The translations under genes and the position numbers were made by a program. Positions 29,790-57,623 of a stretch of DNA of 64,000 nucleotides are shown in pieces (positions within the stretch are counted from its first letter, which is position 1; the number at the start of each line of letters is the position of its first letter). The stretch spans positions 4,388 to 68,387 of the forward strand of contig JBIQKA010000014.1 of NCBI GenBank assembly GCA_044507075.1, given 5' to 3'. The notes below the pieces were generated by a model, which worked only from the letters and a program-made list of their open reading frames with translations, had not been told where the DNA came from and searched no databases. The DNA is from Myxococcales bacterium. GTDB taxonomy: Bacteria > Myxococcota_A > Polyangia > Polyangiales > DASUME01.

Positions 29790-29919
29790 GATCGACTCGG
29801 GCCCGATCGGCGAAGATGCGTTCCCCCTCTCCTTGTCGTCCCCGCCAACGCGCGCGACCTCGGATCGAGAGCGTGCTGGGGTATCGTCGCAGCGTCCGTT
29901 CAGCGCATGGGCGCGTGGA

Positions 29920-53617: not shown

Positions 53618-53962
53618 CGGTCGCGCCTTTCGTGCGGCCCGCGCGTGCGTCATGTTCCCTCCTCTTTGCATCACCAGCGCGCGCGTAAATCCGCATCGAT
53701 CGCGGAAAGCCCGTAGACCATCCACCCCACAGGTCGGACGGTCAGAATGCATTTGCGACACCTACCGCTCCCGAAGCGTGCGCTCGTTCTCCTCCGCGCG
53801 CCCGAACACGAAGCGCGACGCACGTCTCTTCTTTTCGCTCTTTGCTGATGCCTGCGCTCAGACGCCGTAGTACGGTCTGTGGGTCGCCGCGCTCATGGAA
53901 GCGCGCAGCGACGAGAGCCCTCGCCTGAGCGCGCCCACGGGCGCGAGCACAGGAGGTTGTCC

Positions 53963-54880
53963 ATGGCAGAGCGCGTCGCCGCGAGCGAAGGCACCGTCGT
54001 CGACTTCATCCGCTCCACGCTGCGTGGCGTTGGGCAGATCGTCTTTCAAGGCCATGCGGGCACCGGCCTCTTCTTTCTCGTGGGCATCGGCTTCACGTCG
54101 CGCATCCTCTTGCTCGGCGCCGTGCTCGGAGCGCTCGTCTCCACGCTCACGGCGCGTCTACTCCGTTACGATGCGCAGGAGATCACCCAGGGGTTGTTCG
54201 GCTTCAACGCCACGCTCGCGGGCATCGCGCTCCCGTTCTATTTGGATCCCGGCTCGTGGATCACCTGGGCGCTCGTCGTCGTGGGCGCTGTGCTCGCCAC
54301 CGTGCTCACCCGCCTGCTCCGCCAGCACCTGTCCTGGCCCAGCTACACGGCGGGCTTCGTCATCTCCACCTGGCTCCTGCTCCTCTTGATCCACGGAATC
54401 GAGGGAACGGCCATCGATCACAAGCCGGAACCTTCGGGTTCGCTCCACGCGCCCAACAGCTTCGTGTCCGCCTTCCTGGCCGGAGAAGCCGAGATCATGT
54501 TCGGCTCGAGCACATTCACGGGGATCATGTTCCTGCTGGGGATCGCCCTCAGCAACCGCAAACACGCCCTGCTCACGCTGCTCGGCACCGTGGTGGGGAC
54601 GGGCCTCGCCTACTACCACAACGACCCCGCAAACACGATCCGCCTCGGAATCTATGGCTACAACGCCGCGCTGGCCGCGGTGGGCATCGTCCTATGGCGC
54701 GAGTCGCTCCTACTCTCGATCTTGGCCGCGGTGGTCTCGGTGCCGATGACCGAGTTCTTCCCCAAGGTGCTCGGCATTCCTCCGCTCACTGCCCCATTCG
54801 TGGCCGCCTGTTGGTTCGTGATCGCCGTCGGCGGCCTGGACCGCTACTTCAGCCACGTCGCCGGAGCGCACCATGCCTAG
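53963..54880 (+). CDS. urea transporter (UT/Yut family)
   Basis: ATG is preceded by AGGAGG. LRGVGQIVFQ...GLFFLVGI, GLFGFNATLAGIAL, GIYGYNAALAAVG and PPLTAPFV blocks are typical of UT channels. Confidence 0.85.
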   Translation: MAERVAASEGTVVDFIRSTLRGVGQIVFQGHAGTGLFFLVGIGFTSRILLLGAVLGALVSTLTARLLRYDAQEITQGLFGFNATLAGIALPFYLDPGSWITWALVVVGAVLATVLTRLLRQHLSWPSYTAGFVISTWLLLLLIHGIEGTAIDHKPEPSGSLHAPNSFVSAFLAGEAEIMFGSSTFTGIMFLLGIALSNRKHALLTLLGTVVGTGLAYYHNDPANTIRLGIYGYNAALAAVGIVLWRESLLLSILAAVVSVPMTEFFPKVLGIPPLTAPFVAACWFVIAVGGLDRYFSHVAGAHHA

Positions 54881-55050
54881 AGCGCATTTCACAAGTCCCC
54901 GCACCGCCTCGCGGGCGGCGCGGCGTCTGATCCGCCGACCTCGGACACTGCGACAATACCCCAGCATTGCCTCGGTCCGAGGTCGACGGATCCGACGCCG
55001 CGGCGCTCCACGATCCGGCGCGGGGATCTATGAAATGCGCTCTAGGGCAT
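54873..55050. repeat. ~178-nt imperfect palindrome filling the urea transporter-ureA spacer
   Basis: The outer arms CCTAGAGCGCATTTCA (54876-54891) and TGAAATGCGCTCTAGG (55031-55046) are perfectly complementary, and 4 more bp pair with a 1-nt bulge. Inner complementary segments: TCCCCGC/GCGGGGA, CGCGGCGTC/GACGCCGCG, GATCCG.CGACCTCGGAC/GTCCGAGGTCG.CGGATC. Confidence 0.85.
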
Positions 55051-55075
55051 CCGGCCCTGCACATGAGGAATCACC

Positions 55076-55378
55076 ATGCACCTGACGCCACGTGAGATCG
55101 AGAAGATAATGGTGTACTCGCTGGCCGAGATCGCGCTCAAGCGCAGGGCCAAGGGGATCAAGCTGAATCACCCGGAGGCGATGGCCGTGATCTGCGCGGC
55201 CGCCATGGATGGCGCGCGCGAGGGTCGCACCGTGGAAGAGGTGATGGCCTCGTCCGCTCAGGTCTTGAAGCTGAGCGACGTGATGGAGGGCGTGGCCGAC
55301 ATGATCCCCTTCGTGCAACTCGAGGCCGTGTTCACGGATGGCAGCCGCCTGATCACCGTCCACCAACCGATCCGCTGA
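55076..55378 (+). CDS. ureA: urease subunit gamma
   Basis: [35 protein letters not shown]...FPDGSRL-type full-length match (100 aa). Confidence 0.95.
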
Positions 55379-55408
55379 CTTCGCAACGCGCGAGCATAGG
55401 AGCACACC

Positions 55409-55822
55409 ATGACCAAGAAGGATGGCGAGGCACGGGTGCCGGTCGGGGGCCTGCTGCTGCGAGAAGAGGAGATCGAGCTCAACGCGGGGCGCGAGGTCGT
55501 CACCCTCAAGGCCCGCAACACCGGTGATCGTCCGATCCAGGTCGGGTCCCACTATCACTTCTTCGAGGTCAACCGTTTCCTCGAGTTCGACCGCGCGCGC
55601 GCGTTCGGGATGCGCATGGACATCCCCGCCACCACGGCGGTGCGGTTCGAACCCGGCGATGAAAAGACCATCAACCTCGTGCCCTACGGCGGCAAGCGCT
55701 ACGCGTACGGCTTCAACAACCTCGTGGACGGTTGGGTGGGTGGTTCGCCCACGACCTACCGCCCCAACTTCACGGAGGCGATGAAGCGCGCCGAGGAGCG
55801 CGGCTTCAAGTCCAAGAAGTAG
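55409..55822 (+). CDS. ureB: urease subunit beta
   Basis: [46 protein letters not shown]...LVPYGG. Confidence 0.95.
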
Positions 55823-55904
55823 TTCCGTCCAGGATGACTGGTTGTTCAGCTCGCGGGCGCAGCTGCCCGCCCCGAACGTTCGCCAGCACGGAGGCGAGGT
55901 TTCC

Positions 55905-57623
55905 ATGTCCAAGATCTCACGCAGGCAATACGCAGACCTCTACGGCCCCACCACGGGAGACAAGATCCGCCTCGGCAACACGGACCTCTACGTCGAGATC
56001 GAGCGCGACCTTCGCGTCTACGGTGACGAGGCCGTGTACGGCGGCGGCAAGACCATGCGCGACGGGGGAGGCATCGAAAACCGCCTGACCTCGGCAGCGG
56101 GCGCGCCGGACCTACTGATCACCAACGTCACGATCATCGACCCCTACCTCGGCGTCATCAAGGCCGACGTCGGCATGAAGGATGGAAAGATCGCAGGGGT
56201 CGGCAAGGCGGGGAACCCCAACACCATGGAGGGCGTGACGCCGGGCCTGGCAGTGGGGCCCGCGACCGACGCGATCTCCGGGGAACACATGATCCTCACG
56301 CCGGCAGGCATGGACGCGCACGTGCACTACATCTCACCCCAGCAGGTGTACGCCGCGCTCTCGAATGGCATCACCACGCTGTGGGGAGGCGGCGTTGGCC
56401 CCACCGACGGCACCAATGGCACCACCATCACCTCGGGCCCACAAAACCTCGCCTGGATGCTCCAGGCCGCGGAGGGCCTGCCGATCAACTTCGGCTTCTT
56501 GGGCAAAGGCAACTCGAGCGGCAAGGGCCCCTTGGTGGAGCAGCTCATCGGGGGCGCCGCCGGCTTCAAAGTTCACGAGGACTGGGGCACCACACCGAGC
56601 GCAATTCGCAGCGCGCTCTCCGTCGCAGACGAATACGACGTCCAGGTGTGCATCCATACCGATACGCTGAACGAGGCCGGCTACGTGGAGGACACCGTCG
56701 CCGCCATGGACGGGAGAACCATCCACACTTACCACTCGGAGGGCGCGGGCGGCGGCCACGCGCCGGACATCCTGCGCGTGTGCGCGGAGCCCAACGTCCT
56801 GCCGAGTTCGACCAATCCGACGCTGCCCTTCGGGGTCAATTCGATGGCCGAGCTCTTCGACATGATCATGGTCTGTCACAACCTGAACCCGAAGGTCCGC
56901 TCCGACGTGGAGTTTGCCGAGAGCCGCGTACGCGCGGAGACCATCGCCGCCGAGAGCGTTTTGCACGACATGGGCCTCATCTCCATCATCTCGAGCGACT
57001 CCCAGGCCATGGGTCGGGTCGGCGAGACGTTCATGCGCGCCATTCAGACGGCTGACACCATGAAGAAGGCACGAGGGAAGCTGCCCGAAGACGCTCCCGA
57101 CAACGACAACTTTCGGGTCCTGCGCTTTCTTTCGAAGGTCACCATCAACCCCGCCATCGCGCAGGGCATCGGGCACGTGTTGGGATCCATCACGCCCGGC
57201 AAGCTCGCCGACCTCGTGCTCTGGGAGCCCGCGTTTTTTGGCGCCAAACCCAAGATGGTGATCAAGGGTGGTCTGATCAATTGGGCGAGCACGGGCGACC
57301 CGAACGCGTCCCTGCCGACCCCGCAGCCCGTGATGTATCGCCCCATGTTCGGAGGCTTCGGCTTAGCCATGCCCTCCACCTGCGTGAGCTTCGTGTCGCG
57401 GGCCGCCTACGACAACGGCATCAAGGAGAAGCTCGGCTTGCAGCGCAAGGTGATCCCAGTGCTTGGCACGCGCACGCTCGGCAAGCAGAACATGGTGCGC
57501 AACACGACCCTCGCGAAGATCGAGGTCGATTCGCAGACCTTCGCGGTGAAGGTCGACGGCGTGCACGCCACGGTGCCGCCCGCGAAGTCGCTCTCGTTGG
57601 GCCAACTCTATTTCTTTAGCTGA
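55905..57623 (+). CDS. ureC: urease subunit alpha
   Basis: Start [28 protein letters not shown] with GGAGG upstream. Contains [37 protein letters not shown] and MVCHNL. Confidence 0.95.

Follow-up and report, generated by a model that had tools for sequence, protein, structure and literature searches.

The locus examined here raises a simple question: why is the interval between a urea transporter gene and ureA filled by one long palindrome, and was this palindrome built for the control of urease or brought in from elsewhere? The locus lies in a window of 64,000 nucleotides, by which we mean the whole stretch of DNA that was analyzed, from a Myxococcota MAG (G000; 6.39 Mb in 322 contigs, 94.7% complete, 7.5% contamination, 67.4% G+C). 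In our view, the palindrome is very probably a single copy of a non-autonomous MITE from a family that employs the termini of an 871- to 872-bp insertion sequence (IS) of the IS427 group of the IS5 family. The element is multicopy with unrelated flanks, its ends are identical to those of such ISs, it is bordered by CTAG/TA, the orthologous site is empty, and its copies show no structure-preserving covariation.

The palindrome and its dispersed copies

The palindrome separates genes that are all encoded on the forward strand. Upstream, a urea transporter gene of the UT family (53879 to 54880; PF03253 at an E value of 1.8e-60) ends in a TAG stop codon at 54878-54880, and downstream the ureABC block (55076 to 57623) consists of ureA (55076-55378, PF00547), ureB (55409-55822, PF00699), and ureC (55842-57623, PF00449 and PF01979). 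Nickel- and urea-related genes are clustered around the palindrome. The inverted arms, each 16 nt long, are CCTAGAGCGCATTTCA (54876-54891) and TGAAATGCGCTCTAGG (55031-55046); their complementarity is perfect, they lie 139 nt apart, and the ATG at 54873-54875 can additionally pair with the CAT at 55048-55050, provided that G55047 bulges out. A repeat search of the window found, nested inside the palindrome, arms of 39 nt with 82% complementarity and of 32 nt with 91%, and the hairpin at this spacer measures about 171 nt. The arms, the TAG stop, the GAGGAA motif, and the ureA ATG all have the positions and sequences given for them in the first-pass annotation, and its suggestion that the whole spacer can fold as a single imperfect hairpin agrees with our folding of 54860-55075, which returned one long hairpin.

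A genome-wide search for copy number, of the kind that the same annotation had proposed as a check, returned a dispersed multicopy repeat, as expected for a MITE-like insertion. Including the urease copy, 16 full-length copies with unrelated flanks are present in G000 and, together with internally deleted copies and fragments, they are spread over more than 14 contigs. The contig of the window itself carries one further full copy (C186:122-289), 4.1 kb upstream of the window, and 14 more are found elsewhere in the genome; the earlier statement that the window holds no second copy is correct for full-length copies. The copies are 79 to 99% identical to the family consensus. The copy on C249 is truncated, two others are internally deleted (C37:12257-12376, 113 bp, and C230:3928-4014, 83 bp), and about a dozen shorter fragments were also recovered. 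Inside the window, a reverse-strand match of 44 nt to the middle of the element (84% identity, E value of 2e-6) at 29855-29898 is possibly a decayed fragment.

Beyond the host genome, BLAST of the element against 40 relatives gave no match, and an exact 20-mer of the conserved core was absent from the genome and metagenome contig collections searched. A pattern combining the TIR with subterminal sequence matched the genome contigs only once, by chance, inside a coding region of Planctomycetota. The sequence family is new, and its kind, a MITE with IS5/IS427-type ends sitting on a stop codon, is well known.

Several structures related to the family were observed in passing. Back-to-back mini-palindromes of 24 to 28 bp that consist of TIRs only, such as CTAGAGCGCATTTCTTGAAATGCGCTCTAAG, occur at G000:C22:6762-6787, at G000:C222:86-110, and at about 1487-1515 of L041 (G005); they may represent minimal elements, or what internal deletion or excision left behind. 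The sole left-right pair of TIRs at an IS-like spacing, C249:25783-27405, encloses a 353-amino-acid ORF that is no transposase and matches no Pfam family, and the pair is best interpreted as two independent element ends.

Target site and the orthologous locus

The MITE proper extends from 54880 to 55042 on the forward strand. It is 163 bp long, 95.8% identical to the consensus, and self-complementary over almost its full length. It is noncoding, the only ORFs crossing it being frames of 70 to 71 amino acids that run into the flanks. The family consensus carries the same 17-nt TIR, GAGCGCATTTCAYAAAT, at both ends. In the urease copy, the left TIR (54880-54896) reads GAGCGCATTTCACAAGT, with one difference from the consensus (G for A at base 16, position 54895), and the right TIR (55026-55042) reads ATCTATGAAATGCGCTC, the reverse complement of which is GAGCGCATTTCATAGAT. 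The left TA of the target-site duplication occupies 54878-54879 in the context C-TA-G; the right TA occupies 55043-55044 and is followed by G55045, which completes CTAG.

When the copies were aligned with 40-nt flanks, similarity stopped sharply at ...C-TA-GAGCGCATTTCAC...GTGAAATGCGCTC-TA-G.... Among the 16 copies tabulated, the termini are GAGCGC...GCGCTC, with single point changes in a few, and 8 have TA at both ends, the others showing TG, CA, AA, GA, or TT at one or both flanks. In nearly all copies, the left-hand base outside this dinucleotide is C and the right-hand one is G, which identifies CTAG as the target, the duplicated unit being TA or the 4-bp CTAG, two readings that are not strictly separable for a palindromic and constant target. 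The first base of the element is G and its last is C, and CTAG is its own reverse complement, so that the target looks like a continuation of the arms. This explains how the first-pass annotation arrived at a palindrome of 171 to 178 nt with no clear target-site duplication; the TA duplication is present, masked within the arms.

The locus before insertion can be approached through a homologous one. No orthologue of the urea transporter was found in 9 congeneric genomes, and its closest homologue (P0003, 79% identical) comes from JGI and Logan contigs in which the order transporter-ureA-ureB-ureC is conserved. In this orthologous locus (L034), the spacer between the transporter gene and ureA is 70 nt long and contains no element, giving an empty site, although in a rather remote relative (protein identity of 79%) and not in a sister strain. 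Its junction reads CATGCTTAGGGCGT, against CATGCCTAG-element-GGCAT in the window, and aligns with CATGCC-TAG-element-GGCAT. Over a longer range, ...CCCCGCCATGCTTAGGGCGT...TTTGCACATGAGGAATCACCATG in the orthologue corresponds to ...GCGCACCATGCCTAG-element-GGCATCC...CTGCACATGAGGAATCACCATG in the window. Taking the element and one TA out of the window leaves ...CATGCCTAGGGCAT..., to be compared with ...CATGCTTAGGGCGT... in the orthologue. Since this removal restores the homologous stop context, the insertion entered a CTAG that bore the TAG stop of the transporter gene. The present stop codon is composed of the left target TA and the first G of the element, which together rebuild TAG and leave the transporter protein unchanged. 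On the other side, the original short spacer (55045-55075, forward strand), with the ureA RBS GAGGAA at 55065-55070 ahead of the ATG at 55076, is intact despite the insertion, and the block TGCACATGAGGAATCACCATG containing this RBS is identical in L034.

Searches for empty alleles gave no match, either for the predicted empty-site 24-mer in metagenome contigs or for joined flanks within the G000 assembly. Without the MITE, the spacer in the window would be about 26 to 31 nt (55045-55075), against 70 nt in L034 (1052-1124), with the 21 nt directly ahead of the ATG the same in both; about 40 nt were therefore lost in the window genome or gained in the orthologue. The nearest relatives of the transporter encoded in this block (53879-57623) are metagenomic (77 to 79%), followed by proteins from Planctomycetota and Nitrospira (about 54 to 57%), and the transporter-urease block may have been acquired horizontally.

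CTAG is a scarce target in this genome, with 2,264 sites where base composition predicts about 19,260, an 8.5-fold underrepresentation. According to crude GC3-based gene calls, about 10% of these sites fall on TAG stop codons, and stop-codon usage is 2318 TGA, 681 TAG, and 231 TAA. A neighboring gene has its TAG stop within the terminal CTAG of the element in 6 of 19 copies and within 5 nt in 2 more, an enrichment that is to be taken as a rough estimate, and none of the 19 copies examined interrupts a long GC3-rich frame. This pattern fits a CTAG-specific element whose surviving insertions spare genes. As many of the remaining CTAG sites are TAG stops, and as the G...C termini rebuild them, insertions at gene ends leave the protein unchanged, and the family offers a clean example of how a CTAG-specific element persists in a GC-rich genome. 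The copies adjacent to stop codons lie in one orientation in 7 of 9 cases, which is not significant.

A different element in the same genome also uses this target. An IS701-family IS (G000:C176:5-1380, within locus L028, C176:1-1547), which encodes a 412-amino-acid transposase (NF033540, PF13546) and is flanked by CTAG, is inserted exactly into the terminal CTAG of the MITE copy at C176:1381-1547, and each MITE end is thus a fresh target for other CTAG-seeking elements. Its TIR, CACTACTTGAT, is different from that of the MITE, which rules it out as the parent.

The hairpin in a putative transporter-urease transcript

The forward strand of 54860-55075 folds at -138.8 kcal/mol, compared with -84.8 ± 4.4 for dinucleotide shuffles (z of -12.4), and the reverse strand at -159.5 kcal/mol (z of -12.9); none of 200 shuffles folded as well on either strand. 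In all copies, the reverse strand folds better by 10 to 31 kcal/mol, owing to G-U pairs. We attribute the hairpin to the fold-back architecture of the element and not to a structure that evolved for urease control. Across an alignment of 13 copies, the RNAalifold covariation term was +2.03, where a positive value is penalizing, double changes occurred at only 4 of 61 pairs, and most substitutions disrupt pairing. Such predominantly pair-breaking differences argue against selection for the structure. The first-pass annotation had looked to conservation of the pairing in orthologous spacers, but the orthologous spacer lacks the element and the variation between copies mostly breaks pairs.

Might this one copy nonetheless have been put to use by its new neighbors? 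A domesticated copy would act as an element for RNA processing, stability, or partial termination that decouples the expression of transporter and urease, and precedents have been reported for the NEMIS/Correia and ERIC elements. Here, a co-opted hairpin of about 75 bp between the stop codon and the ureA RBS would provide a site for a double-strand-specific RNase or a 3' stabilizer. The hairpin is certainly very stable, and the spacer probably lies within a single transcription unit, the orthologous spacer being just 70 nt long and no terminator-like site having been detected. Moreover, gene-adjacent MITEs are transcribed and are able to stabilize or destabilize mRNA (PMC3733652). The urease copy is one of the two most stable forward-strand folds of the family, and it alone reads TCTGAT at 54926-54931, where other copies have CCGCCT; of these four changes, two restore pairing with the opposite arm, so that 17 instead of 15 of 19 arm positions are complementary. 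This variant could reflect hairpin-templated correction, a subfamily difference, or chance. Against domestication, there is no covariation or pair-preserving bias between copies, 15 unrelated loci carry the same hairpin, the stem is not followed by a U-tract, and a promoter and terminator scan found no promoter-like or terminator-like site inside the element. We regard domestication as very unlikely, and place co-option as an RNase site or stabilizer at the same low level. If it did occur, different levels of transporter and urease could be obtained from one nickel- or urea-controlled transcript, and the stem-tightening 4-nt change peculiar to this copy would then record past selection.

Under the preferred reading, that of a MITE copy whose hairpin did not evolve for this operon, an incidental effect of the hairpin on a transporter-ureABC mRNA is possible. 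If these genes are cotranscribed, the mRNA would carry a hairpin of about -124 to -139 kcal/mol, which could incidentally affect processing, stability, or read-through. Should the hairpin indeed alter expression of the transporter-urease transcript, the locus would illustrate how a mobile element can rewire an operon in nature.

Long-hairpin MITEs adjacent to genes have been described in several bacteria, namely, NEMIS/Correia in Neisseria, ERIC and YPAL in Yersinia, RUP in Streptococcus pneumoniae, and Nezha in cyanobacteria (PMC3733652). The urease element resembles them in falling within 70 to 300 bp, in having TIRs within 15 to 30 bp, in being noncoding and located beside genes, and in a near-complete self-complementarity that would yield one robust hairpin in a transcript. 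In contrast, it shares no sequence similarity with any of them, and its host belongs to an uncultured genus of Myxococcota. Correia and ERIC are reported to influence mRNA; for the urease element, any such influence is hypothetical. Correia and ERIC also duplicate TA. For annotation purposes, the appropriate label for the spacer is a MITE with IS5/IS427-type ends rather than a urease regulator, and masking of the family is advisable wherever else it occurs in G000.

Source of the element ends

The origin of the family can be traced through its termini. The 15-mer TAGAGCGCATTTCAY is present in 8 other genomes among 300 sampled from the same taxonomic order, while a reversed-pattern control was found in none. 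In the congeneric genome G002, TAGAGCGCATTTCAY is the left end of an IS, of which a 3'-truncated copy (L038), beginning with CTAGAGCGCATTTCAT, is available. This IS encodes an ORFA with DUF4096 (PF13340) followed by an ORFB with DDE_Tnp_1 (PF01609; the frames also match PF13612 and PF13586). Matched to NCBIfam NF033580 (IS5 family), the two frames cover positions 4-121 and 114-228, and the A-run GCAAAAAAGGGG lies at their overlap in this copy. Homologues of ORFA, 78 to 86% identical, led to three metagenome contigs with complete ISs of 871 bp (L066) and 872 bp (L067 and L065), each with perfect 18-bp TIRs and cTA...TAg flanks. The TIR of L066 and L067 is GAGCGCATTTCA[C/T]AAATG, that of L065 begins with GAACGC, and L066 has an ORFA with PF13340 and an ORFB with PF01609/PF13586. 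The MITE consensus ends, GAGCGCATTTCACAAATCCCC and GAGCGCATTTCATAAATCCCC, are identical to the TIRs of L066 and L067 over 17 nt and are unrelated to these ISs further inward. A remoter relative of the IS in G021 (64% ORFA identity) is flanked by C-TA-G as well.

ISs of the IS427 group measure about 830 to 865 bp, carry inverted repeats of 13 to 21 bp, duplicate 2 bp in most cases, and contain a pair of overlapping ORFs together with a frameshift motif (PMC3281130). The partner ISs share this organization, being about 0.8 to 0.9 kb long with two overlapping ORFs, a DDE_Tnp_1 domain, and 2-bp TA flanks. L065 to L067 are like IS1248, ISPpa2, and ISPaes1 of Paracoccus, which belong to this group (PMC3281130), in size, TIRs, TA flanks, and ORFs with DUF4096 and DDE_Tnp_1/DDE_Tnp_1_2. 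The MITE shares with such ISs the terminal 17 nt and the CTAG/TA target but differs from them in being noncoding and in having an unrelated interior, and no IS of this type is present in the G000 assembly.

Its size within the range of about 70 to 300 bp, its lack of coding capacity, its TIRs, its presence at multiple unrelated loci, its target duplication and empty site, and its IS-shared ends mark the element as a MITE. Neither an autonomous partner in the same genome nor a sign of mobility was found in the G000 assembly; a partner is not required for membership, as fossil MITE families are common. By tblastn, ORFA and ORFB of the partner IS have no close homologue in this assembly, and no partner transposase was detected at an E value of ≤1e-15 in five further genomes whose small repeats share the MITE terminus. 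Repeats are often missing from MAG assemblies. The MITE family may now be immobile, as the lack of a matching transposase in the assembly would imply, or the partner IS may be present and unassembled.

From these data, we infer that the family was mobilized in trans by a transposase of the IS427 group. The source IS type would produce this transposase from two overlapping frames, one supplying the DUF4096-containing N-terminal part and the other the DDE part, and would insert at the tetranucleotide CTAG, duplicating its central TA. In this scenario, the transposase, supplied in trans, recognized the ends of the MITE and inserted it into the CTAG that held the TAG stop of the transporter gene, and the G...C termini would then have rebuilt CTAG at both ends of the element. 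This leaves the stop codon, the ureA RBS, and the transporter protein as they were, which accounts for the tolerance of the insertion.

The TA flanks inside CTAG would also suit a MITE derived from an IS630/Tc1-mariner element, since this family likewise duplicates TA and IS630 itself targets CTAG. The 17- to 18-nt ends, however, are identical to those of complete IS5/IS427-group elements and not of IS630 elements, and the DDE_3 transposase domain (PF13358), which gave matches in control genomes, is absent from G000, making this derivation very improbable. As a dispersed, intergenic, hairpin-forming repeat, the element also recalls the REP/REPIN-type palindromes mobilized by a RAYT (Y1 transposase), but its 163 bp, IS-type TIRs, and fixed TA/CTAG target are unlike REPs of 20 to 40 bp (PMC3733652), and Y1_Tnp (PF01797), matched in 6 control genomes, is absent from G000; we give this assignment almost no credence.

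Hardly any weight can be given to a riboswitch, attenuator, or DNA operator dyad that arose in situ for urease, even though the palindrome fills the spacer directly upstream of the ureA RBS and is surrounded by nickel- and urea-related genes, because the copy number and the empty orthologous site exclude a structure specific to this locus. The first-pass annotation had itself tied a locus-specific reading to the element not recurring at many unrelated loci, and 16 full-length copies with unrelated flanks decide the matter. The Rfam/Infernal scan that it had recommended, run on 54000-56000 with a cutoff of E ≤ 1, found no family at gathering threshold, the best matches being eukaryotic miRNA-precursor models at 21 to 27 bits against gathering thresholds of 77 to 89, which is sub-threshold noise. 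Of the four options that it had listed, the MITE-like insertion survives; an RNA processing or stability element evolved for the operon, an attenuator, and a protein-bound dyad find no support as its origin.

Finally, the GAGCGCATTTCA terminus is found on different small repeats in other Myxococcota. The elements in G279 (L046, L061, and L062) are about 170 nt long, and the one in G238 (L042) is 146 nt. In G157 (L052 to L060), the same terminus occurs on a 53-nt element and on a one-ended repeat of about 237 nt, and two elements adjoin there, sharing one TA.
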